DNA of 64,000 nt from an uncultured delta proteobacterium (lineage in GTDB: Bacteria; Desulfobacterota; Binatia; UBA9968): contig CAVSHR010000004.1 in the NCBI GenBank assembly GCA_963727625.1, positions 1,088,001 through 1,152,000 of the forward strand. Reading direction: 5' to 3'. Under the pieces are notes generated by a model that had not been told where the DNA came from, made no database searches, and was given only the letters and a program-made list of their open reading frames with translations. Position 1 is the first letter of the stretch. Every line of letters begins with the position of its first letter. This document shows positions 1 to 11,866 of the stretch, piece by piece. The position numbers and the translations under genes were made by a program.

Positions 1-340
1 TCTTTACCTCGTCATAAAATTCATCAATTTCTCCGGCCGTGAGCTCGAACTCCAATTTGAAAACAGATTCCCCACTGGCGTGCTTGGATTGGAGAGAAAT
101 TGGATAGTCGCGCTCCCAATTATACCCTCCCAGATCGCGTCTTGGGGTTTGAACTCTACCACGACGAATTTTGTACACTCTCAAATCGCGTAGGACCTCG
201 AGGCCGGAGACAAGAGCCTTTAGGATATTGGATTTCCCCTCGTTGTTGGGACCGAGCAGCACCGTGGACTGCCGAATCGGAAGTCGATAGGCTCTAGTGA
301 TGCTCCTGTAATTGGTGACTGAAAAGGATACGAGTTTCAT
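1..340 (-). CDS. AAA/ABC-type ATPase, OLD-family ATP-dependent endonuclease-like (runs off the left edge; not in the ORF track)
   Basis: Manual translation from ATG at 340: MKLVSFSVTNYRSITRAYRLPIRQSTVLLGPNNEGKSNILKAL. It has the N-terminal NYRS motif and Walker A GPNNEGKS. The ATG overlaps the hsdS stop (ATGA, 337-340). Confidence 0.8.
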   Translation of the reverse strand, partial: MKLVSFSVTNYRSITRAYRLPIRQSTVLLGPNNEGKSNILKALVSGLEVLRDLRVYKIRRGRVQTPRRDLGGYNWERDYPISLQSKHASGESVFKLEFELTAGEIDEFYDEVK

Positions 341-462
341 AGAAAACCTCTGCTGAAGGGTAGTCTTTCGCTGAAGGCGCCTTGCAAAATCGACTGGTGG
401 AGGCGGGTGGCGCGCTGTAGGTTGGCGCTCACGACTTCTTCGAGTTCCTCCACAACACTTAA

Positions 463-1978
463 CCCTAAACCGACAATAATTTTGGCGTTCACGCGGCCGA
501 TTTGAGTTTGTCTTCGATGGATTCGATCCATTTTTGCACTGGTGGAGCTACCGAGAAACGCAGCACCGAGTAGCCTTGAGGTTTGACGATGCGTGCCGGT
601 TGATGAATCAGCTTAAAACGGATCGTTTTCAAACTATGGAGCAAATAACTGCAAGTTCGTTTGCGCGATCTGGGCTTGGGCGTAGCTAAAGTCTGGAGCT
701 GAAAGTTTCTCACCAGGTTGTGCCCCAACACCGAGATTTGCTGCCAGGCCGAGTTCGCTCCGTAGTGGCGGGTGGGCACCACATCCAAAGCCCATTGCCC
801 TTTGAGCTCGGCGAAGGTTTTCTCTTGGGCCCCCCGCCCCGCCATGAAATTCCATAACGCTGCAGCACCTAAATCGAGATTGGTAGTCACCGCGGAGTAC
901 TCAAAGTAGCCATCCTCTGGGTCGAACAGATCGAGCTGGTAGTTCTTCTTGCTCTGGTGGTGAACAGGTTTTCGGTAAACCACCACGCGCAGCGTCTTTT
1001 CCCAGGCCTCCACATACAGTGAGACTTCGAACCATCCCATGCCGTCTCCTAGTCGATGCCAGCGTTGACGCTCGCGGACGATCGGCACCAGGCCTAACCA
1101 TTTCATAAACGGCACTTTGATCGCGTAGCGCGCCTTTCTGCGCTCCAACAAATGGATAATCTCTCGCTGGAAAAACGCCCCGTCCATGCGAAACTCTAAC
1201 GGCAACGCCCTTCCCAGCCGTGCTCTGACATCGTCGATCAGCTCGCCTAAGAATGCCTGTGCACCTTTGGAGTCATGGACATTGCCGGGCCGATTCTTGA
1301 CTCGCAAGATGTGGCCGGTCTGGGCCAGATGGGCCAGGATCGGATAGTACGAAGGATTCTTGCGATGATGTGGATTAAATCCCCGAAACGCCCACGCCAC
1401 ACTGGCTCCGGTCGTAATCACACTGCCGTCGATATCCAAAGTCAGACGTGCCAACGACTGCTTCTCGATCGCCTCATAGACGATCTGGCTGTTGATCTCC
1501 ACCAACGCTCTGAGCGACTTGTGGGTAAACCGCTTGAGCCAGCGCGCCACGCTGCGCTCGCGCGGTAGGCGCAACAAGCCGCAAAACCGCTTCACCAACG
1601 GATCGTCGCAAACGTAGTTCAGATGATCGAGCCGGCGTCCGCCCACTAAAATCAAAACCACGATCACCAAGACCATGTCGATGCAGCGATAGTCTCCACC
1701 GATCTCGTATCGCCCAAACTCCCTGCTCACTCTACGTCCCAGGTCGATCAGCGCTATGTAGCGCCGCATCAACTCCAAACCGCCGAACGCCGTGATGTCT
1801 TGAGCCGCAAACTCGATCTTCAAAAAACTCTTGCACGATGAATAAAAATCCGCTCTATTCAATCTCACTTAGAGTGGCCTCCTTGCAGGACGATTCAGTC
1901 GGTGTGGTAACTGCTTTATCTCCCGCAACCGTAGGCCATTTCAAGTTCTATCTGCTCTCTTTTATTGTCGGATTAGGG
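463..1978 (-). mobile_element. IS1380-family insertion sequence
   Basis: 17-bp terminal inverted repeats CCCTAAACCGACAATAA (463-479) and TTATTGTCGGATTAGGG (1962-1978), one mismatch. TTAA target duplication at 459-462 and 1979-1982. Confidence 0.92.
489..1868 (-). CDS. IS1380-family DDE transposase
   Basis: 459 aa with motifs TAFGGL, LDIDGS, YYPILAH, RPGNVH, RMDGAF and RGAQEKTFAELK. Confidence 0.92.
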   Translation of the reverse strand: MRLNRADFYSSCKSFLKIEFAAQDITAFGGLELMRRYIALIDLGRRVSREFGRYEIGGDYRCIDMVLVIVVLILVGGRRLDHLNYVCDDPLVKRFCGLLRLPRERSVARWLKRFTHKSLRALVEINSQIVYEAIEKQSLARLTLDIDGSVITTGASVAWAFRGFNPHHRKNPSYYPILAHLAQTGHILRVKNRPGNVHDSKGAQAFLGELIDDVRARLGRALPLEFRMDGAFFQREIIHLLERRKARYAIKVPFMKWLGLVPIVRERQRWHRLGDGMGWFEVSLYVEAWEKTLRVVVYRKPVHHQSKKNYQLDLFDPEDGYFEYSAVTTNLDLGAAALWNFMAGRGAQEKTFAELKGQWALDVVPTRHYGANSAWQQISVLGHNLVRNFQLQTLATPKPRSRKRTCSYLLHSLKTIRFKLIHQPARIVKPQGYSVLRFSVAPPVQKWIESIEDKLKSAA

Positions 1979-2600
1979 TTAATAGGCGCTCGACTTCGGG
2001 AACAATCCGTTTCTGCTCAACGTTCGGCGGAACTGGAACCGGAAGCCTCCGGAAGTCTTCGACATTGACACCTCGAAGTGCCACGCCTCGCGTTTCTCCG
2101 CTGAGCCAACGTTGGCAAAGATCCGATCGAATCGCCCAGACAACGTAATTTCTGACGACATCCTTCGCAATTGGCGCACGCATTACGTGCTGCGTAATGT
2201 TTCCCCCGGCTAGTTCTGGTGGAACAACAGCCACGCGACCAATCGTTCCGTCTTTCGAAATTAAAATATCCCCACTTGCCAGTGTTGCGCGAGCGAACTT
2301 TGCAGCGCGTTCTTTAGAGGTTCGACGAAGATTAGAAATATCAATTCGTCCATCTTTCATCTCAGTGACTCTGACGTACGGGACACCACCATTTATGTGG
2401 GGGCCTGGCTTAATGATTCCATAAATTATGGGCCGATTTGCTTGCCCGATTTGCTCCAGCGTTGCCCACGCCCACCCCCCCGGCAGCGACGGCAGATTCG
2501 ATGTATCCGGTTTCTGCGGCTCTTTGTACTTCCCCTTCCCAGTCCATTTCTGGCGCCGCTCGTCAAGGATGCGGTCGAGAAGTTGGGCGCCGGTTTCGTA

Positions 2601-2885
2601 GCCTGCCTGCCGCGCCCGCCCCGCCGCTATCTCGCGCCGAATCCATTTTCGGCCAAACCCAGTCTTAAGCCATTTTTCCCTTGCGACACCTTCTTCTCGC
2701 GATGTGTATTCTTCGTAATGAACGATCGACACTGGCTTGTGTTGGCTTGTCCAATCTGCGGCCTGCCCGGCTAAGTGCTCTTTCCAACGCTTTTGAAGAT
2801 CCTGGGTTTGGCCGATGTAAACGCTGTCGTTGTCACATCGAATGGCATAGACAAAGAAGACCCCGGGGCGCGGCGCAGGCAGGGT
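2601..2885 (-). mobile_element. GIY-YIG nuclease module inserted in frame in hsdS
   Basis: 95 codons (FFVYAIRCDNDSVYIGQTQDLQKRWKEH...AREKWLKTGFGR) between HsdS ELARQEGR and YETGAQLL. Bounded by the inverted repeat CCTGCCTGCCG (2602-2612) / CGGCGCAGGCAGG (2871-2883). Confidence 0.8.
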
Positions 2886-3579
2886 GCGGCCTTCTTGGCG
2901 GGCGAGTTCGGCTTCGGTGGGGACGAGTTTGCCTTCGCAGGCGGCTTTGAGGACGGCGGCGCGGTAGCGTTTGAGGTTGGCCTGCACGCGCCGCAAGCCC
3001 GCGACTCCCGCCTCCAGCCGCGTGAATTGCTTCTCGATCTCCGCGACGATCTGGTGACTGTTACGTCAGGAGGCGAATCGGAACCTGCAAGTGCCTCAAT
3101 TCTTGTGCGCTAACGTTTTGCCGCGCGAACGCCGTTACCGAGACGATACTGCAAGAATTGCCGATCAGCAGAGCGGAGAACAAGTGCCCACGCAAAATAT
3201 CGGAGAGGCAATTCTCGGCTTAAGCAGCAACGAAGCCCGGATTCGATGATTTTGTGAGTCGGTTCTGCCTCAATCAGGCGGACCGAGAGCAACTTTCCCA
3301 TAGTGAGCCAGACATCCCGATGAGAAAGAATCACCCTCGCTGGGCCACGAAGTATCGGCAACTCTTATATAAAACGATGCGGCGACACGATTCGCGCGGC
3401 AACGTCATACATCGTCCTACATCCCAGGTCGGACTGCCTTATTAGGGGACACCTTCTGGCCTGTAATCACTGCTCTTAAACGCGTAGCCATTCCGGACTT
3501 TGAGAATGGCGCTCCGCAACAGCGATCTTGTCAAGAGGTTGCCCACCGCTTGGCAATCGCGGACTATCAGACATCTCAC

Positions 3580-6500
3580 TCACGCTGCCAACACCTCGTT
3601 GAGTTCATCGAGCAACTTCGGAAGTTCGTCACCAAACAATTGATGTGCTTTTCCCAATCCTCCCCGCTGGCTGAAGGGCGCGTAGTTGAAATCGTTTGGC
3701 TCAATGCTGATCGCAGTTGCGATATGGTCGCGGATAAGTTCCAGCCAGGCCAACTGCTCCGGCGTAAATGTTAAAGTAGCAGAGGCGTCTCGCCTCTGTG
3801 TTTCCTCCGACGCCGGAGCAGACGCACTTCGCGTGCGCTGTTCGTCCGAAATAGTGGCAGAGCCGTCTCGGCTCTGTTCTTCGTCCGATCCCAGCGGCGG
3901 GACGCCGCTGCCACTTTGTTTCCTTACCAGCCACTGCTTAAACCCTTGATTGACCGTTTGGGCGAAACGGCTCAAGAACCTGCTCGCGTTCGAGCGCGAA
4001 GCGGACGAGGGAGACGAGGTCGGCGAAGCGGCCGGCTTGGGAACGGCCTTTGACCTTCTTCGGCGCGACGGCGGCGAAGGCGTCCCAGAGGCGGTCTTCG
4101 GTCCAGGCGGCGTGCTGTTCGCGGAGTTTTTTCTCCAGCTCCTTGAGCATCGGTTCGGTGAGGCGGTGACGGTACGGGCGGCTGTAAAGAAGCTGCAGCG
4201 CGGTGATCTCCGCTTTGTGCTTTTCGATGTAGTCGCGGAACGACTTCGTCAATTCATCGGCGTTTTGCGTCGTCTGCTGACTCGCGCCGGCGAAGAGCAC
4301 GCGGTCGCGGGTGATCACGTCGATCACCTGCTCGCTGGTCTGGTGGACCTTTATCAATAGCTGGCGCAGCGCGGGATTGCCCGCCAGCGGCGCGACAGCT
4401 TCCTTTGCCAAAGTGGCAGCGGCGTCCCGCCGCTGCTTCTCCGTGGGCTCAAGATAGCTGGGGTTCTCAGCGCCCCGGTGTGCGCGGATATATTCGCGGA
4501 ACTTTTCCATACTGGCTGGGCTTCGGACGATGTGGTCGAAAGATTCCTTTTGCCAGACCGCGATGGCTTTCTCGGACGGAGGCGGGACGCCTCCGCCACT
4601 CTCTTCGGATGCGGATTTTAAAGTGGCAGAGGCGTCTCGCCTCTGATTCTGGAATTCAGTCAAGCGGCGGGACGCCGCTTCCACTTTTAAGATTTCATGC
4701 GCCGTGAAGGACTTCCAAGAATGGAGGATTTCAGACAACCGATGGTCGCCCAATGGGGAGACCAGGACGTGAACATGATTGGACGCCACGGCAAATTCAT
4801 CCAGCTGGTAGCGATCGCCGTCAAAGTGCCGGAGAGCGTTTTCCATTAACTGTTTCACTTCCGGCAGAGCTAAAACGCAAGAACCGGTTCCGGCATCGAG
4901 CCACTGCTGAATGCGTTGGGGAAAGCGCTCGTAATATTCCATTCGCGCCACCGCGTCATGGGGCTCCGGGTGTTGGGCAAGCCACTGGTCTCTTTCCGTT
5001 CTCCATTCCGCAAGCTTTTCTAGCGGCAGCGAATCGGCGAGCCGAAAGGTCACAAAGTAAGTCGCGCCGTCCTGCCGCCAGTGCGGCAGATCACCCGTTA
5101 GGAACGCCACGGGTTCATTGGGATCAAAGTAATTGAGAGTGGCAGCGGCGTCCCGCCGCTGTTGTTCGAGAACCAAGAGGCGGGACGCCGCTGCCACTTT
5201 GTCCGGATTCACTGCTCCGAGAAGCTGCTGCGCGATCTCGCAGAGGGTCTGGCCCTGGGCCGTGGTCCGGACTTCCTTTGCGAGCGCTTCGTCGAAGCGT
5301 TTCTCCAACCGAACCAGCCGTCCGGCGAGGCTTTCGAGCACTTCGGGCTCACGATTGCCGAGGGCGACGGCGTCAAGCAGCTTGTCGAAGCTCACCGTGC
5401 GCTTGGTCTCCAGCGGGCGGGAATCGGTCAGGTCCTGCTCGCAGACACCAACGGCGTCGATGATGACAAAGCGGTTCTTGCGCTTGATGCCGGGATTGAC
5501 CTGTTCCATTTCCGTTTCCGATATTACCCGTACTCCCCTGCCCTTCATCTGCTCGAAAAAGCCGCGCGACTTGACCGAGCGCATGAAAAAGACGATCTCC
5601 AGCGGCTTTACGTCGGTGCCGGTGGCGATCATGTCGACGGTGACGGCGATGCGCGGGTTGTAGCTGTTGCGAAAGGCCTGAAGAATCTGATCCGGAGAGA
5701 GATTGGACACTTTCTTCCAGACGACTTCTTCTATTTCTTTTCCATCGGCTCCGGTTTTCTTCTCGACATCGCGCACGAAGCCGGTGCGGTAGGTTATTTT
5801 CTGGCAGAAGTCGTTGCCTTTGTCGAAGACCTCCCGGCAGATGCGCACGATATCGTCGGCATGGGAGTCGTCCTTGGCGAAGATCAGCGTCTTGGGCACC
5901 TGATAGCGGCCCGGAAAGATCTCCGTGAAAAGTTTATCGCGAAAGGTCTGTAGCACCGTGCGAATCTGATCCTCGGCGACCACGGCGCGGTCGAGCTGAG
6001 CGGCGTCGTACCGGAAGTCTTCGTCGAGTTGCTCCCAGCGTTTCTTGCGCGTCTGGCGGTCGCGCTTGTCGACATAGAACCCGGCGTCGATCTTGGCGCC
6101 TTGAGAGGTGACCTCGGTCTGGATGCGATAGACGTCGTAATTGACGTTGACGCCGTCGGCCACCGCCCGCTCGTGGTTGTATTCCATGACCAGATTCTGA
6201 TTGAAAAAGCCGAAGGTCTGCTTGGACGGCGTCGCAGTAAGGCCGATCAGATGGGCGTCGAAATACTCCAGCACCTGGCGCCAGAGGTTGTAGATCGAAC
6301 GGTGGCACTCGTCGGTGATGATGATGTCGAAGGTGTCGATGGGGAAGGCCGGGTTATATTCGATCGGCGGGGCTTCTTTGAAGAGCGATTCCAAGCCCTG
6401 GACCGAGCGCTCGTCGGCTTCCTCGTCGAGCTCCTGCCCTTTGAGCATGGAATAAAGCCGCTGGATGGTGCCGATGCAAACTCGGGCGCTGGTATCGAGC

Positions 6501-7297
6501 GTGTTCGAAGCCAAGCGCTGGATGATGTACTCCTCGTGGAACTTATAGTTGTTGTAGGGCGACACGTATTGCTGAAACTCTTTGAGCGTCTGCTTGCCCA
6601 GGTTGCCGCGATCGACCAGGAAGAGAATGCGCTTGGCGCCGGCGAACTTGATCAGCCGGTAGCTCAAGACAATCGCGAGCAGCGTCTTGCCGGAGCCGGT
6701 GGCCATCTGCACCAGCGCGCGCGGCCGGTTGTCGCGCAGCGACTGCTCGATGTTCATGATTGCCTGGGGCTTGGGCGGCCAGATGTCGTCGATCAGCGGC
6801 GGCATGTGCTGGATGCGGCTTAAGAAGTTACCGCTGCGTCCGGCGTAATCGGCGATCGTTTCGACCGGCTCGGGCGACGCGTAGTTTTCCACCCAGCCGA
6901 GCAGAGCGTCAGGACGGTGATACGCGAACACGTTGCGGCTCCGCGGTACGGGATCGAGACGGTTGGTGAAGCGCGTCTCGGTGCCGGTGGACTCGTAGCT
7001 GAACGGCAGCGGCGCGCGCCAGGCGGGGATGCCGAACGGCACGCCTTTAACGTACTTCTCTGACTGCTCCTCGACGCCGGTAAGCGAATGGCCGGCGGGT
7101 TTGGCTTCGATGGTACCGATCGCTTTGCCGTCGACGAACAGCGTGTAATCGGGCTCGCCGGTCTTAAACGTCAGCTCGCGCACGGCAACGCCGCGCGACG
7201 CGGCGAGATTGACGCCGTTCTTGTCCTGGACAACCCAACCGCAAGAGCCGATTAACGCGTCGATTTCTATTCGGGCTAGTTCCTCGGGATCGGGCAT
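3580..7297 (-). CDS. hsdR: Type I restriction subunit HsdR (EcoEI-like) with an internal RAYT domain; one frameshift near 3965 separates the C-terminus (3580-3975 frame)
   Basis: Nuclease motif PDYTLFVDGKAIGTIEAK, helicase motifs MATGSGKT, DECHRS, LTATP, TGTDV and QMKGRG, and C-terminus FTPEQLAWLELIRDHIA...FSQRGGLGKA. LEPF-AQTV is broken by one extra T (real change or homopolymer error). Confidence 0.9.
3776..5197. repeat. Nine REP palindromes, consensus GT(G/A)GCAG(C/A)GGCGTC(C/T)CGCC(G/T)CTG, several as inverted doublets
   Basis: Copies at 3776-3798, 3854-3876, 3892-3914 (rev), 4413-4435, 4577-4599 (rev), 4623-4645, 4662-4684 (rev), 5139-5161 and 5175-5197 (rev). Each has a GTAG/GTGG tetranucleotide followed by a hairpin. 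Confidence 0.9.
4470..5138 (-). mobile_element. REP-associated tyrosine transposase (RAYT / Y1 HUH) domain, in frame inside hsdR
   Basis: Motifs LPHWRQDGATYFVTFRLADSLP, HUH motif NHVHVL, ILHSWKSFTA, and WQKESFDHIVR...EYI with the putative catalytic Tyr. Confidence 0.88.
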
Positions 7298-7427: not shown

Positions 7428-7788
7428 GGCATGAGGCGCGAGGCAACAGGCGTGAGACGGAGAAGAGTCGGATGAAATTGAAATACAAAAACCGCGATCG
7501 TGGCTCGGCGTCGTAATCCGCAAACCCGCCGTAATGGGATCGTATTCTAAGGACGACCGGTCCGATTGTCCAAGATGAAATTCCTATATCACTGTTATTG
7601 GTTATTCTTATATCACTCGGCCGCGGACAGCACTGCGACAATTGATCTCACGACCGGTTGAAGTCGTTCGAAACGTTCCATCGCCGCGGTCCCGGCGCCG
7701 CTTCACGGTTCAATGTTCAAAGGGTCCAAGGACCAGCTTCGTCGGGGAACTTCCACGTTTCGAGAATTCTCGAAGTGTCGAAATGACG
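7428..7788. repeat. ~360-bp repeated non-coding module, copy 1
   Basis: Highly similar to 9249-9530 plus 10850-10930. Shared blocks include GTGAGACGGAGAAGAGTCGGATGAAATTGAAATACAAAA and CCGGTCCGATTGTCCAAGATGAAATTCCTATATCACTGTTATTGG. Confidence 0.9.
7544..7572 (-). promoter_or_regulatory. Putative sigma-70 promoter inside repeat copy 1, pointing toward hsdR
   Basis: TGGACA-17 nt-TAGAAT with an AT-rich upstream tract. Conserved in copy 2 (9357-9386, 18-nt spacer). Confidence 0.55.
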
Positions 7789-8038
7789 TCAAATCCGCTC
7801 GCGCGATATTTGTCAGTCACCACTGCGACGGCTTGTTGAAAGTGCCATGCTCGTCTTTAACAGTCGTCGGAAGCTGCCTGGCGGCGAGAACGCCTGGGCG
7901 GATGTGCTTATAAAAGAACCCGTTCCAGTCGTTCAATCCCCCGGATCGAGTCCTTGGTCCGTTCAAATCGTTCCGGAGTGTGCACCAACGGGGGAGGCCG
8001 CACGTTTCGAGAATTCTCAAAACGTCAAAATGCCGAAG

Positions 8039-8299
8039 CTACTTCTCTAGACCAAGTCGCCGGCGAAGTTCGGCAGCTGGAACGGCACCTTCTTTTTTTA
8101 ACCGTGCCCTGGAGCGTTTAATGATTTTTAAAAACTTGCGGTTGGTGCTGAGAGCCACAGTTTCTTCATCGACGTTTCGGATGGGTACGACCGCGGCGAA
8201 CGGCTTGCCCTGCTTAACAACAATCACCGGGTCTTTTCTCGCCTTTTCGGCGTATTCCGACAGCGGTGCTGTGGCTTTTTTGAGTTCGACCCTTGTCAT
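8039..8299 (-). CDS. Phd/YefM-type antitoxin
   Basis: 86 aa with the Phd-like N-terminus LSEYAEKARKDPVIVVKQGKPFAAVV; overlaps the toxin stop. Confidence 0.75.
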   Translation of the reverse strand: MTRVELKKATAPLSEYAEKARKDPVIVVKQGKPFAAVVPIRNVDEETVALSTNRKFLKIIKRSRARLKKEGAVPAAELRRRLGLEK

Positions 8300-8595
8300 A
8301 GCTTGATTCCTTCTCCCCCAATTCGGACTCGCTCTCTTTCCTTGACGCCAACCGCCAGAATGGTCACTGTTGGAAGAGATTCGTCGCTCACTTCATAATA
8401 CACTCTCAACTCGCCAATGCGAAGTTCCCACGGTGCTATCGGGTTGGGCCGCATTGGCTTTCTGTTTCGCGTCTCTACCGCAGGCTGACTAAGCAATTGT
8501 CGATCAACGGTGTCGAGTACAATTCTTTACTGACGCGCCGTGAGCCCCCGCAGGTGATCCTCCGCCTCTGGAGAGTATTGGATGATGTAGGCCAA
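8296..8595 (-). pseudogene. RelE/ParE-family toxin with an internal nonsense codon
   Basis: TTG start at 8595 gives MAYIIQYSPEAEDHLRGLTARQ*RIVLDTVDRQL...PWELRIGELRVYYEV...AVGVKER. In-frame TAA at 8527-8529. Confidence 0.8.
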
Positions 8596-8621
8596 TCTAT
8601 TTCCTATTGAAATGTTTCCGC

Positions 8622-8650
8622 AATCTAATGGATTGCCCAGGGTTGGGCAA
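8622..8650 (-). promoter_or_regulatory. Promoter/operator of TA cassette 1
   Basis: TTGCCC-17-TAGATT, with inverted repeat TTGCCC/GGGCAA overlapping the -35. Confidence 0.5.
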
Positions 8651-9530
8651 GGAGGCGCGGGAATAGCAACGTCATGGTCGTGGGGAAAGGGTCGTGAGCG
8701 GGTTTACGAAGGATAAAGTATAAAACTAAAAAGACGCGAGTGTGATCGTGGCTCAGCGGCCGGAGATTGGGATCGGCGGGAGAGCGTCTGGATGACGCGG
8801 TTGCTCATCGGGGACTGCTTCGTTTCAGACGTTCAAGGAGCCTGTCCTGAGTTTATCGAAGGGTTCAATCGCTGCGCTGCGTTCAAATCGTTTCCGGATA
8901 GGTGTCGGGCACCGACAAATGGGCAAGAGTGGGTTACAGCCGGCGACGTGACTGGGGAAAAGGTCGTGATCGTGGCTCGGTGAAAAGCAGTGGGCGGCTT
9001 CCCCCGCCTTTCTATGGCCATCTTACTCTCACTTATCCCGTGTTCCGAATCTGGTGGGACGCGACAGGAGCACTAACGTGGTCCTGTTCGTGATTCGTGG
9101 TGGGGACGAAAAACCGTGTTCGCGAACGAGAGAAGGGCCGTGCGTGTGGCTCGTGACCTCGTAAGAAACTACCGGGATCGTCATTCGTGGACGTGCGGGG
9201 GAAACTTCCACGTTTCGGGAATTCTCGAAACGTCGAAATGTCAGAGCAGGCATGAGCAACAGGCGTGAGACGGAGAAGAGTCGGATGAAATTGAAATACA
9301 AAATCCGTGGACGGGACTCGGCCTCGTGATCAGTAAACCGACCGTAATCGGACTGCATTCTAAGGGACCACCGGTCCGATTGTCCAAGATGAAATTCCTA
9401 TATCACTGTTATTGGTTTTTCTCATATCACTCTGCCGAGGACAGCGCCGTGATGATTGGACTCACGACCGGTTGAAGTCGTTCGAAACGTTTCATCGCCG
9501 CGTTCCCGGCGCCGCTTCAAGGTTCAATGT

Positions 9531-10849
9531 CAGAAGCGTCCGACACGTTTCACAATAAAATCAGTTGGTTAGGGTCGTCGTAGAGATGTTCGTTGGTTGC
9601 CGAGTAGGTAAGGAGTTGAAACAAGGGAGTTTTCTCGAACGGTGTGATGCTCAGAATCTGTAGCATTTCGTGCAGGGACAACTCCAGATTGAGACGTTTG
9701 CGAACGATGGCAACTAGCACGTACACGGCTACCGCGATCCAGACCTGGGTCTTCACGGCGTTCTCGGATGTGCCGAAGAAGCGCTTGATGCGGAGGTGTT
9801 GCTTGATCCACTTGAAGAACAGCTCGACTTGCCAGCGCGATTTGTATAGCTGGCAAATGGTGAGAGGTGCCAAGGTCATATGATTGGTCAAAAACACCAA
9901 CCGCCGTCCTTCGGCATCGCGATAGCGAATCCGGCGCAGGCGCGCGGGATAGGCCTTCACAGAACGCGGTACGACCAAGTTTACTTCCTGGTCGCAGAGC
10001 AATCCGGTGCGGCGATCGACCGGTCGGGAGTAGACGCGCTTGAATTTGAAGTTGGCTTTGGCACGAGTGACGAAGAAGCTGGCGTCCTGATCGAGGCGGT
10101 ACAGCCGCTCGAAGTCGATGTAGCCGCGGTCCATGACGTAGAACGCGCCCGGTTCGGCAATCAACACATCGAGAACATTGACATCGTGCAGCTTGCCGTC
10201 GGAGATGTGAATGAAGCTGGGAATCGCGCCGCGCAAGTCGAGCAGCGTGTGCAGCTTGATCGCCGCTTTGGTCTTGCGAAACTTGGCCCACGCGAACAGC
10301 GACAAGCACAAGTCGATGGTGGTGGCATCCAAAGCGTAAACCGTCTCGGCAAGCTCCACAGAAAGAGAGTCCTGGGAATACAGTCTGCGTGCGGTGCGGA
10401 TAAGTGCATGAGCGTACTCGGCAAAGATGCGCCAATCGCGCGACTCGTTGGCGTCGGCCAGAGCACTGCGGCTTAGCTTGCCGCGAAGACCCATATGATA
10501 GAGCTTGGCGGGCTGCGCGCGCAAACACGCCTCGATATCGCGCAGGCTTTCGCGGTAGGTTAGCTGTGCGAAGGCCATCGAGAGAAACTGGTCCAAGCAG
10601 CTGAAGGTGCGCACGTTGAAATCGCCACGATACTTCGCCACCAGCCGACGAAACGTATGCCACGGCGCAAACTCCATGAGTTGTGCGAATACCAGATTGC
10701 CTGTGTGCATCGGTGCCTCCCGGGAAAGTCCCGAAAGACTGCCGACAATGACAATATAAATTCAAATCGTTAACACCTCGATACTTTATGAACACTGCGC
10801 AATACCTAGCTTTTTATCAGAGAGACCTAAAATCTGTCGGACGCTTCTG
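9531..10849 (-). mobile_element. IS4-family insertion sequence
   Basis: Perfect 15-bp terminal inverted repeats CAGAAGCGTCCGACA / TGTCGGACGCTTCTG. 9-bp target duplication GTTCAATGT at 9522-9530 and 10850-10858. Confidence 0.93.
9550..10710 (-). CDS. IS4-family transposase (DUF4372 + DDE_Tnp_1)
   Basis: Motifs AQLTYRESLRDIE, ALDATTIDL, KLHTLLDL, DRGYID and YKSRWQVELFFKWIKQHL. Confidence 0.95.
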   Translation of the reverse strand: MHTGNLVFAQLMEFAPWHTFRRLVAKYRGDFNVRTFSCLDQFLSMAFAQLTYRESLRDIEACLRAQPAKLYHMGLRGKLSRSALADANESRDWRIFAEYAHALIRTARRLYSQDSLSVELAETVYALDATTIDLCLSLFAWAKFRKTKAAIKLHTLLDLRGAIPSFIHISDGKLHDVNVLDVLIAEPGAFYVMDRGYIDFERLYRLDQDASFFVTRAKANFKFKRVYSRPVDRRTGLLCDQEVNLVVPRSVKAYPARLRRIRYRDAEGRRLVFLTNHMTLAPLTICQLYKSRWQVELFFKWIKQHLRIKRFFGTSENAVKTQVWIAVAVYVLVAIVRKRLNLELSLHEMLQILSITPFEKTPLFQLLTYSATNEHLYDDPNQLILL

Positions 10850-10933
10850 GTTCAATGTTCAAAGGGTCCAAGGACCAGCTTCGTCGGGGGAACTTCCACG
10901 TTTCGAGAATTCTCGAAGTGTCGAAATGACGGT

Positions 10934-11233
10934 CTAGATAAGCCGGCCCGAGGTCTGAACAACCTTCTCCAGTGCCTTCAACAACACCCGCGTTTCCCCC
11001 TGGTGCTTGAGCCAGTAGCGGACCTCTTTCCCGGCGGTGTCGTATCTCACGATATCGGCTGCGCGCAGCTTGGCCAGGTGACCGCTGACGGTTTGCACCG
11101 AGCGCCCGGCGAGTTTGGCCAGCGCGCTCGGCGTCATCGGTCCGCCTCGATCCAGGAGAATAACCAGATGGTAAATGACCGGATTGCCAAGCAGCCGACA
11201 GAGCCTCGACTCGCGATATTCGGTTTCGTCCAT
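10934..11233 (-). CDS. ArsR-family winged-HTH regulator
   Basis: LGNPV...TPSALAKLAGRSVQTVSGHLAKLRAADIV. Preceded by TTGACA-18-TACATC (11241-11270), 7 nt before the ATG. Confidence 0.8.
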   Translation of the reverse strand: MDETEYRESRLCRLLGNPVIYHLVILLDRGGPMTPSALAKLAGRSVQTVSGHLAKLRAADIVRYDTAGKEVRYWLKHQGETRVLLKALEKVVQTSGRLI

Positions 11234-11304
11234 CGCCAGCGATGTACGGCGAAACCGCCGACCCTGTCAAGCGCCCTTCCACGTTTCGGGAATTCTTAAA
11301 AAAT

Positions 11305-11595
11305 CTACCGGTAACTGCCACGGCGCAGGAGGGCTCTAATCTCGTCGTGGTTGCCAAGAAAGGAAACATAAAGTTCGGGGCCTCGGTCTTGAAAGAGAAA
11401 TCGAAGATCCCGGTTGCCGCGGCATTCAAAGAGCTTGTCTCCTAACTTGCGGATTCCCACACCGCTGTGCACATGGGGCCGGCCAAAACCATCCACCAGG
11501 TCACAAAGCGCAAGGAGACATTCTACTCTTTCGTTCTTTGGCAGTTCGCGCAGGCGGCGGATGACCGCGGGATCGATGGTAAGAAGCTTACTCAA
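11305..11595 (-). CDS. RelE-like toxin (putative)
   Basis: 96 aa with GIRKLGDKLFECRGNRDLRFLF...FLGNHDEI; overlaps the upstream antitoxin. Confidence 0.7.
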   Translation of the reverse strand: MSKLLTIDPAVIRRLRELPKNERVECLLALCDLVDGFGRPHVHSGVGIRKLGDKLFECRGNRDLRFLFQDRGPELYVSFLGNHDEIRALLRRGSYR

Positions 11596-11866
11596 GCATA
11601 TTCCTAAGCTCTTGCACCGTTACCGACGCGAGTTTTTTGTCCCGCTTCAAGCGCCGATAGCGCCGGTCGGTGGCTTTTTCCAAGGCGGCCACCTGCTCGG
11701 GCGGAGCGCCATACTCCCGCTGGGCATAGTCTGTGGACTCGACGTCGACCTTCCTGAGCGCGACGATGTCGGCGCCGCAGACAATACCGATATCCTCGCC
11801 CCGCGCCGCCGCCTCGAGCCAACGGCCCAAATTCTTCTTCGCATCCGTGATCGTTAGGGTCTTCAT
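11588..11866 (-). CDS. Phd-like antitoxin (putative)
   Basis: N-terminus MKTLTITDAKKNLGRWLEAAARGEDIGI is Phd-like. Confidence 0.7.
   Translation of the reverse strand: MKTLTITDAKKNLGRWLEAAARGEDIGIVCGADIVALRKVDVESTDYAQREYGAPPEQVAALEKATDRRYRRLKRDKKLASVTVQELRNMLE

Follow-up and report, generated by a model that had tools for sequence, protein, structure and literature searches.

A transposon that enters a gene is expected to destroy it; the known exceptions, inteins and self-splicing introns, spare the gene by removing themselves. In IStrons, an IS200/IS605-type transposon is joined to a group I intron, and the ribozyme removes the IStron from RNA. REPtrons have been described as free-standing, intergenic genes for a REP-associated tyrosine transposase (RAYT), in genomes that carry tens to hundreds of repetitive extragenic palindromes (REPs). 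Here, we analyzed a 64,000-nt stretch of DNA (the window; contig CAVSHR010000004.1 of assembly GCA_963727625.1, positions 1,088,001 to 1,152,000) from an uncultured delta proteobacterium of the Binatia, in which a RAYT domain and its REP hairpins lie in frame within hsdR, the gene for the R subunit of a type I restriction-modification (R-M) system. Our results indicate that the insert is probably a complete, selfish REPtron, expressed as an in-frame translated passenger in a variable linker of HsdR.

In the accessible text of Quentin et al. 2018 (PMC6006769), 'unexpectedly long proteins' of the family are excluded and attributed to fusion or to errors of annotation. Di Nocera et al. 2013 (PMC3733652), in the part of the article available, describe REPs within genes, often genes of DNA synthesis/replication and repair, including intragenic REPs with mostly GTGG heads in the verrucomicrobium O. 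terrae. Like the window insert, the intragenic REPs and Rickettsia palindromic elements covered in that part are small palindromes in frame in coding genes; they differ in being hairpins alone, adding 20-80 aa, and a transposase inside a host frame is not reported there. The available portion of Corneloup et al. 2021 (PMC8266576) does not mention insertion into coding sequences. Our literature search, with subscription journals and supplementary tables outside its scope, found no description of a RAYT inside a host reading frame.

The window insert shares features with each of the described systems. With E. coli-type REPtrons (4er8) it has in common a Y1/HUH fold, an HUH motif with one tyrosine, flanking GC-rich hairpins with GT[AG]G heads and a single-copy RAYT, whereas its RAYT is an internal domain of HsdR, its REPs are translated and the genome holds no others. 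Compared with IS200/IS605 elements, the transposase fold and subterminal hairpins are the same, but the window element is single-copy, lacks tnpB, has REP-type ends and an extra helical insert, and shows no clean insertion. Inteins likewise are selfish, sit in frame in conserved, often essential and often DNA-handling genes, are translated with the host, vary in presence among close alleles and recur at a site within a host family. Unlike them, the window insert has no Hint match in Pfam, its mobility enzyme would be an HUH transposase and not a homing endonuclease, and it presumably remains in the mature protein. IStrons resemble it as transposons of the same superfamily whose insertion into genes is rendered harmless; the open frame through the window element argues for translation, not splicing.

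The cassette within HsdR

The main hsdR open reading frame (ORF) encodes 1119 aa. Pfam placed HSDR_N at aa 33-115, ResIII, SWI2_SNF2 and DEAD at aa 177-413, Helicase_C at aa 536-591 (20.3 bits, under the 23.5 cut-off) and the first half of EcoEI_R_C at aa 1015-1112 (profile 2-85), in the order HSDR_N, SF2 helicase, EcoEI_R_C that characterizes type I R subunits. The initial annotation of this locus had claimed a RAYT-type Y1/HUH domain between the helicase and the C-terminal domain, which alignment and fold bear out. The domain lies in the linker between helicase and EcoEI_R_C, with no stop throughout the insert. Y1_Tnp (PF01797) gave a partial match at aa 827-877 with 21.2 bits (E 3.2e-4) at a gathering cut-off of 23; relatives of the same subfamily pass the cut-off at 26-43 bits, and three REPs interrupt the window domain. 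At E up to 0.01, the Pfam matches of the protein include no Hint or intein family.

All motifs named in that annotation are present, namely LPHW, TYFVTFRL, NHVH, WQKESFDH and the tyrosine. The HUH motif is N-H-V-H at aa 840-843, and both of its histidines (H841 and H843) are invariant across 40 relatives. The catalytic tyrosine, Y936, occupies the invariant column Y217 of the alignment, within helix 208-223 of the structural model. These residues are among 30 invariant columns in an alignment of the window RAYT with 39 relatives; the window copy belongs to the alignment, and the invariant residues are thus present in it by construction. An AlphaFold (AF2) model built from the alignment had a pLDDT of 84.3 and showed an extra helical insert compared with IS200/IS605 transposases. 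The top Protein Data Bank (PDB) matches in Foldseek were 4er8_A, 2a6m_B and 2xma_A (probability 1.00, E 8e-4 to 1e-3, TM 0.44-0.54 on the target), that is, the E. coli REP transposase with a bound REP hairpin and the transposases of IS608 and ISDra2. A sequence-only PDB search with the RAYT returned nothing relevant, with three spurious matches to RGS proteins (E 0.0026 and weaker). The REP-cutting chemistry of the domain would, by analogy, be that of the E. coli enzyme. The 6.6-Mb genome holds one RAYT copy.

Nine REP hairpins lie in hsdR, each with a GT[AG]G head (GTGG in 8, GTAG in 1), an 8-bp GC-rich stem and a 3-nt loop (Table 1). The initial description of GTGG/GTAG REPs that flank and interrupt the domain is confirmed. 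In the stems, 98.2% of the cells are paired and four of the eight pairs carry compensatory changes on both sides; the covariation score was reached by 1 of 500 shuffles, and slid registers pair at 38-68%. Six REPs are read without a stop in the main ORF and three in the 131-aa ORF downstream. The three REPs inside the RAYT domain are in frame in a loop before the WQKESFDH strand, which is ~8 aa long in free-standing relatives. On the two sides of the RAYT, a 24-nt core (5138-5161) recurs identically at 4412-4435 as a direct copy 726 nt (242 codons) away. A further cluster consisting of REPs only is in frame immediately before the FTPEQ motif of EcoEI_R_C. The hairpins are not due to chance: of 10 genome-wide matches to a strict hairpin pattern, 8 are within hsdR, and the REP consensus, with at most 4 mismatches allowed, has 8 matches, all of them within hsdR. 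No dispersed REP population, which is typical of REPtrons though not strictly defining, was found outside hsdR in the 6.6 Mb.

Table 1 Features of the hsdR locus, in positions of the window
Feature	Position	Strand	Description
hsdR main open frame	3938..7297	-	1119 aa: HSDR_N nuclease, SF2 helicase, cassette-bearing linker, first half of EcoEI_R_C
REP	5175-5197	-	head on coding strand, imperfect stem; translated V701-L708; N-terminal side of RAYT
REP	5139-5161	+	perfect stem; translated QRRDAAAT, aa 713-720; N-terminal side of RAYT
RAYT domain	4457..5134	-	aa 722-947; HUH codons 4769-4777; Tyr936 codon 4490-4492
REP	4662-4684	-	within RAYT domain
REP	4623-4645	+	within RAYT domain
REP	4577-4599	-	within RAYT domain
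Seven retained host codons (YLEPTEK)	4436..4456	-	between RAYT and 3' REP; match YFQPT[ED]K of empty alleles
REP	4413-4435	+	perfect stem; 3' of RAYT; place and 27-nt length of nine empty-allele codons
131-aa ORF, other frame	3580..3975	-	second half of EcoEI_R_C (profile 99-162) and three-REP cluster
Frame break	3961..3968		one extra base compared with intact homologues; protein reads ..LEPF, then departs from AQTVNQ..
REP	3892-3914	-	EcoEI_R_C part
REP	3854-3876	+	EcoEI_R_C part
REP	3776-3798	+	GTAG head; EcoEI_R_C part
hsdS-like ORF	1962..2996	-	344 aa, then DDE transposase ORF
DDE_Tnp_1_4 transposase ORF	489..1868	-	123.6 bits
Short ORF	337..531	-	by eye resembles the conserved HsdS C-terminal tail

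Alleles with and without the cassette

HsdR alleles that lack the cassette are 958 aa long and 88-92% identical to the window protein over aa 400-714. We defined the site by protein alignment together with the DNA of four empty and one filled metagenomic loci. Empty alleles read NPD[KN][VI], ten codons (EAKAKEGKDQ), Y-F-Q-P-T-[ED]-K, nine codons and a conserved [QK]-[ED]-A-[VI]-x-P-L. In filled alleles, REP-REP-RAYT takes the place of the ten codons, the next seven host codons are retained, and a REP of equal length replaces the following nine. The same arrangement was found in a second host subclade, with filled alleles P0014, P0016 and P0018 beside empty alleles P0154 and P0162. Comparison with insert-less homologues, as the initial annotation had proposed, thus yielded an empty site defined by replacement, not by plain insertion. 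A clean insertion of the kind expected from IS200/IS605 chemistry is contradicted by this loss and replacement of codons. At the same place, distant HsdR homologues carry unrelated linkers of ~30-35 aa, and the site thus tolerates variation.

The linker is one of several sites of this kind in HsdR. Before FTPEQ, where the window gene has its REP-only cluster, P0010, P0014 and P0018 carry a REP dimer and P0013 a whole RAYT; at a third site, before RFTDLV, a RAYT is present in P0051, P0052 and P0067. Filled alleles that are intact over their full length include P0004, P0010, P0014, P0016 and P0018, while the closest filled allele, P0002, is also frame-broken, at another place than the window gene.

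These alleles bear on a reversible switch, in which the cassette would be excised precisely from single-stranded DNA (ssDNA) by its own transposase and the in-frame state would be one phase. IS200/IS605-type enzymes do excise precisely, the exact 242-codon spacing of the identical cores means that loss of the DNA between them would keep the frame, and sites that hold whole RAYTs in some alleles hold REP-only scars in others. However, empty alleles contain sequence that excision from a filled allele could not produce. Moreover, no reads or contigs crossing the cassette in the way a switch predicts were found, the joints being short REP-to-REP matches from other organisms, and a switch does not require a stop-free insert, yet 50 of the best 80 genomic loci considered below are open on both sides. 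We regard the switch as unlikely.

A search for source reads of the window found three sediment metagenome runs with 5-6% of the sampled words and no RNA run, and the contigs that aligned were only short and from related organisms (85-99% alike), with joints of 21-50 letters on the shorter side. In three congeners (G015:C243, G009:C4 and G022:C214; loci L008, L010 and L013), an orthologous hsdR 88-90% identical to the window gene is matched until the contig ends, at aa 573, 482 and 336, respectively.

A chimeric assembly that fused hsdR to a RAYT locus would be compatible with these contig ends inside the hsdR match and with the failure to find source reads, which leaves the assembly and its extra base without read support. 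Against such an artefact, the same architecture and junction motifs recur in independent assemblies (G023, L103 and dozens of proteins), some carriers lie on contigs of 0.7-5.5 Mb, one with a named species label (P0016, P0109), and host sequence is in frame on both sides of the cassette. An assembly artefact is therefore extremely improbable.

Selection was examined against G023, the sole close congener with DNA across the cassette. In the RAYT core (187 codons), pN was 0.104 and pS 0.88, which is saturated, with a four-fold identity of 0.42 (n=59); the flanking host segments had pN 0.04-0.08, pS 0.33-0.40 and a four-fold identity of 0.68 (n=158), and the REP-coded segments pS 0.22-0.26. The RAYT is conserved as a protein, and the REP hairpins are constrained as DNA. 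This dN/dS-type comparison, called for in the initial annotation, also indicated that the cassette is more diverged than its flanks at silent sites, and the same was seen between the window and L103. Among 55 same-host pairs, with few exceptions, RAYT four-fold identity was 0.20-0.72 compared with 0.32-0.78 for the host; in the pair L031-L032, RAYT and host were clearly co-inherited. The flanks of filled alleles are no nearer to one another than to those of empty alleles.

The older silent-site divergence of the cassette fits movement between alleles, or homogenization of the flanks by recombination, and the weaker codon bias of the cassette could partly account for it (GC3 0.63 in the RAYT, 0.78-0.83 in the host). 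The separate histories of cassette and flanks may reflect homing between alleles. A single ancient insertion inherited with hsdR is not favored, given that filled alleles occur in two subclades, each beside empty ones, and given the flank distances and the higher silent-site divergence of the RAYT; recombination among alleles could give rise to this picture.

RAYTs embedded in other host proteins

Among 8000 candidate proteins of 615-1959 aa scored with the RAYT domain, 1526 matched. In the 120 long relatives listed, the domain lay at least 100 aa from both ends in 106, and REP-type peptides (resembling V-E-A-A-S-R-R or R-R-D-A-A-S-T, as the palindrome reads in its two translations) stood on both sides in 108, as against 9 of 120 control windows; the relatives are not independent, and such counts overstate the number of events. 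Proteins of 132-422 aa gave 4737 matches, including true free-standing forms of ~195-220 aa. When 1.84 billion cluster representatives were searched with a profile irrespective of length, 19,921 members reached an E of 0.001 or lower and 1551 an E of 1e-30 or lower; 66 of the best 150 cluster representatives were 400 aa or longer. In contigs from one genome per species, 557 of 598 candidate stretches encode a RAYT relative, in genomes labelled mostly as Verrucomicrobiota, Kiritimatiellota and Planctomycetota. Carriers with species names among the long relatives are Roseibacillus persicicus, with an HsdR form, and Pontiella sulfatireligans, with a PriA form. A one-off insertion is ruled out by the long relatives, the REP-flanked domains and the embedded genomic loci.

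Locus classes, hosts and hairpin flanks were determined for the best 80 of the 557 loci, a RAYT being counted as embedded when the frame on each side stays open for 100 aa or more, or until the contig ends. By this measure 50 loci are embedded, 10 are open on one side and 20 are free-standing. Hosts, assigned either directly with Pfam or through BLAST matches to proteins with Pfam annotation, were PriA (10 loci), HsdR (8), MmeI-like or type IIG enzymes (8), DinG-like helicases (6), CarB (4), SNF2, XseA and ValS (3 each), ClpB and UDPGP-like proteins (2 each), and DUF1156, an N6_N4 methylase, D-Tyr-tRNA deacylase, a GNAT protein and a B12-binding protein (1 each), with 6 unclassified. The search for further fusions that the initial annotation had suggested thus revealed many hosts and, in HsdR, the three sites described above. 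Removal at the RNA level, as by an intron, is not favored, the frames being open through the element in the 50 embedded loci. A single genome can carry more than one embedded cassette: one bin (G043; L082 and L097) carries them in both valS and carB, and another holds a second RAYT in a 1408-aa frame (G042:C22:43522-44109) besides its valS cassette.

Of the 60 loci that are embedded or open on one side, 47 are flanked by GT[AG]G hairpins, as are 18 of the 20 free ones; hairpin density is 4.6-6.0 per kb near the RAYT compared with 0.24-0.30 per kb farther off. The 99 forward-oriented hairpins in host frames, which are related and not independent copies, fall in frames 0, 1 and 2 in 73, 23 and 3 cases, respectively; for GTAG-headed hairpins, frame 2 is closed by TAG.

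Host proteins that bear a cassette include normally indispensable ones. In all five genomes checked, the sole PriA match is the cassette-bearing frame, and the sole ValS bears a cassette in two of three genomes, with valS split at the cassette in the third; most of these genomes are metagenome bins of uncertain completeness, in which a second copy could have escaped assembly. CarB is single and cassette-bearing in two genomes, has a second copy in one and gave no match in one. Because valS and priA are normally indispensable, the PriA and ValS proteins with inserts most likely function.

In a tree of 81 RAYT segments, built quickly under LG+G4, the labels of the hosts change 31 times (minimum 16, shuffled mean 56.5, with none of 200 shuffles as low). 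DinG-like, CarB, XseA, ValS, ClpB and UDPGP-like hosts each form one clade, while there are 4 label changes for PriA, 3 for HsdR and 6 for type IIG enzymes. Free-standing RAYTs are interspersed, with 13 changes, at least 6 of them forced by starred branches. The window RAYT falls together with two further copies from HsdR (support 98). The tree thus indicates lineages that stay long faithful to one host gene, with repeated switches of host and between the free and embedded states.

The range of hosts bears on the second possibility raised initially, a chimeric translocase-HUH nuclease, that is, an HUH domain recruited by HsdR for a new ssDNA nicking or covalent-attachment activity. Consistent with such an exapted fusion, the RAYT protein is conserved with its catalytic residues complete, filled HsdR alleles can be intact over their full length, and 40 of the 54 classified hosts in the best 80 loci handle DNA (HsdR, PriA, MmeI-like, DinG-like, SNF2, XseA and methylases). 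However, similar REP-ended cassettes occur in ValS, CarB, ClpB, D-Tyr-tRNA deacylase and GNAT proteins, and such non-DNA hosts argue against it. Furthermore, close alleles lack the cassette, free-standing forms are interspersed on the tree, and conservation acts on the DNA of the hairpins, a constraint of no use to a recruited protein domain. A recruited activity thus appears very unlikely. The other possibility raised there, a selfish translated passenger in a tolerant linker, is supported by the 92% identical empty alleles, the length-variable linker, the DNA-conserved REPs, the low pN (0.10) against saturated pS, and the unrelated hosts ValS, CarB and ClpB. The excess of hosts that act on ssDNA at forks and breaks (PriA, DinG-like, HsdR, SNF2 and XseA) may be adaptive for the element, in that the host would carry the nuclease to its substrate.

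The window system and the life of the cassette

The initial annotation had placed hsdR at 3580-7297, with the frame open through the insert. The frame is open through the whole RAYT insert, but the span as a whole, though a single gene, is not a single frame: the main ORF stops at 3938-3940 and the last ~130 codons lie in a different frame. The 131-aa ORF is the predicted true continuation of hsdR, from about 3960 downwards. Because intact homologues (P0004, P0126 and others) are uninterrupted there, the break is attributed to one extra base at about 3961-3968; the base at 3968 is absent from one relative's contig, a weak indication since that contig has other indels nearby.

The partner genes also appear damaged. 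An insertion sequence (IS) appears to split hsdS, because an HsdS-like tail lies beyond the transposase ORF (Table 1). The nearest match to N6_Mtase, the hsdM type, lies about 6 kb before the window start (G000:C4:1081324-1082269) and is split over two frames (profile 3-71 and 72-294), which suggests a broken hsdM.

The hsdS-like ORF also contains, at aa 47-112 and in frame before Methylase_S, a GIY-YIG nuclease domain (55.4 bits). In addition to the RAYT, the R-M operon thus has a second nuclease-type domain translated within one of its genes. The nearest ESM Atlas cluster to the hsdS-like protein (score 0.94, 59 members) has both the GIY-YIG and the Methylase_S family, and no clear terminal repeats were seen around the GIY-YIG domain. 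On the other side of hsdR, window positions 7443-11314 contain a ~45-nt local palindromic repeat in five copies (7744, 7991, 9199, 10887 and 11270), whose degenerate core has just five occurrences genome-wide, and a ~290-nt repeat at 7443-7727 and 9256-9541. By eye, ORF 9550-10710 (-, 386 aa) is IS4/IS5-type transposase-like, and the small paired ORFs at 8039-8496 and 11305-11866 are toxin-antitoxin-like.

The frame break, the IS-cut hsdS and the two-frame hsdM, together with the frame-broken P0002 and the absence of REPs elsewhere in the genome, are what a decaying pseudogene would show, in which the RAYT is no longer made or active. However, the break lies downstream of the cassette, so that the promoter of hsdR and 1119 codons, those of the RAYT among them, stay open; the invariant RAYT residues are all retained, and the single extra base could be an assembly error. 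We consider a dead relic improbable, and it would bear on the window copy alone, not on the class.

Several points weigh against a translated passenger. The window R-M system lacks a single uninterrupted hsdR frame and intact hsdM and hsdS, and with hsdR broken past the cassette and its partners disrupted, the locus does not itself demonstrate a tolerated passenger in a working enzyme. The Y1_Tnp score of the window protein stays below the Pfam cut-off, filled and empty alleles differ by ten and nine missing or replaced codons and not by a clean insertion, and the lack of REPs outside hsdR gives no hint that the element is now mobile in this genome. To these are added the missing source reads, the uncertain completeness of the bins behind the sole-copy hosts and the relatedness of the proteins counted. 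Finally, translation through the cassette and its nicking activity are what we infer from sequence.

Despite these points, a selfish in-frame passenger remains the probable explanation. Lacking expression signals of its own, the cassette would be translated together with the host protein, by read-through, and so form one of its domains. The stop-free REPs of the cassette would have two roles, one in DNA, as hairpins for the transposase, and one in the protein, as linkers. The domain would, like the REP transposase of E. coli, nick and rejoin ssDNA at REP hairpins. Selection would retain only frame-preserving insertions in permissive surface loops, and an embedded copy would be difficult to shed, since nothing short of an exact in-frame deletion leaves the host gene unharmed. 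The element would thereby occupy the niche of an intein, minus protein splicing. In the window, the host system is probably decaying through the lesions in hsdR, hsdS and hsdM, and the 1119-aa product would keep the whole RAYT.

Taken with all its components jointly, the wider proposal that in-frame REPtrons represent a previously unrecognized lifestyle of DNA transposons, in the intein niche without splicing, is one we hold tentatively, as falling a little short of likely. Such a transposase would exist only as a domain of host proteins, with no gene of its own. Its REP ends would have evolved both as ssDNA hairpins and as translatable stop-free linkers, with forward copies mostly in one frame, and its lineages would make long stays in one host gene family, with repeated switches of host and of free or embedded state. 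The adaptive excess of ssDNA-acting hosts and the homing between alleles considered above would belong to the same proposal.

Collectively, our results suggest that an HUH transposase and its hairpin ends persist as a translated extra domain in at least dozens of species. If confirmed, this would be a third strategy for life inside genes, and it would account for many 'helicase/RayT' and 'methylase/transposase' fusion annotations. It would also provide natural cases of large domain insertions tolerated by essential enzymes, and of HUH domains tethered to DNA motors, which are relevant to protein-DNA conjugation tools. Because filled and empty alleles differ by replacement and not by plain insertion, it would further pose the question of how REPs and RAYTs move.

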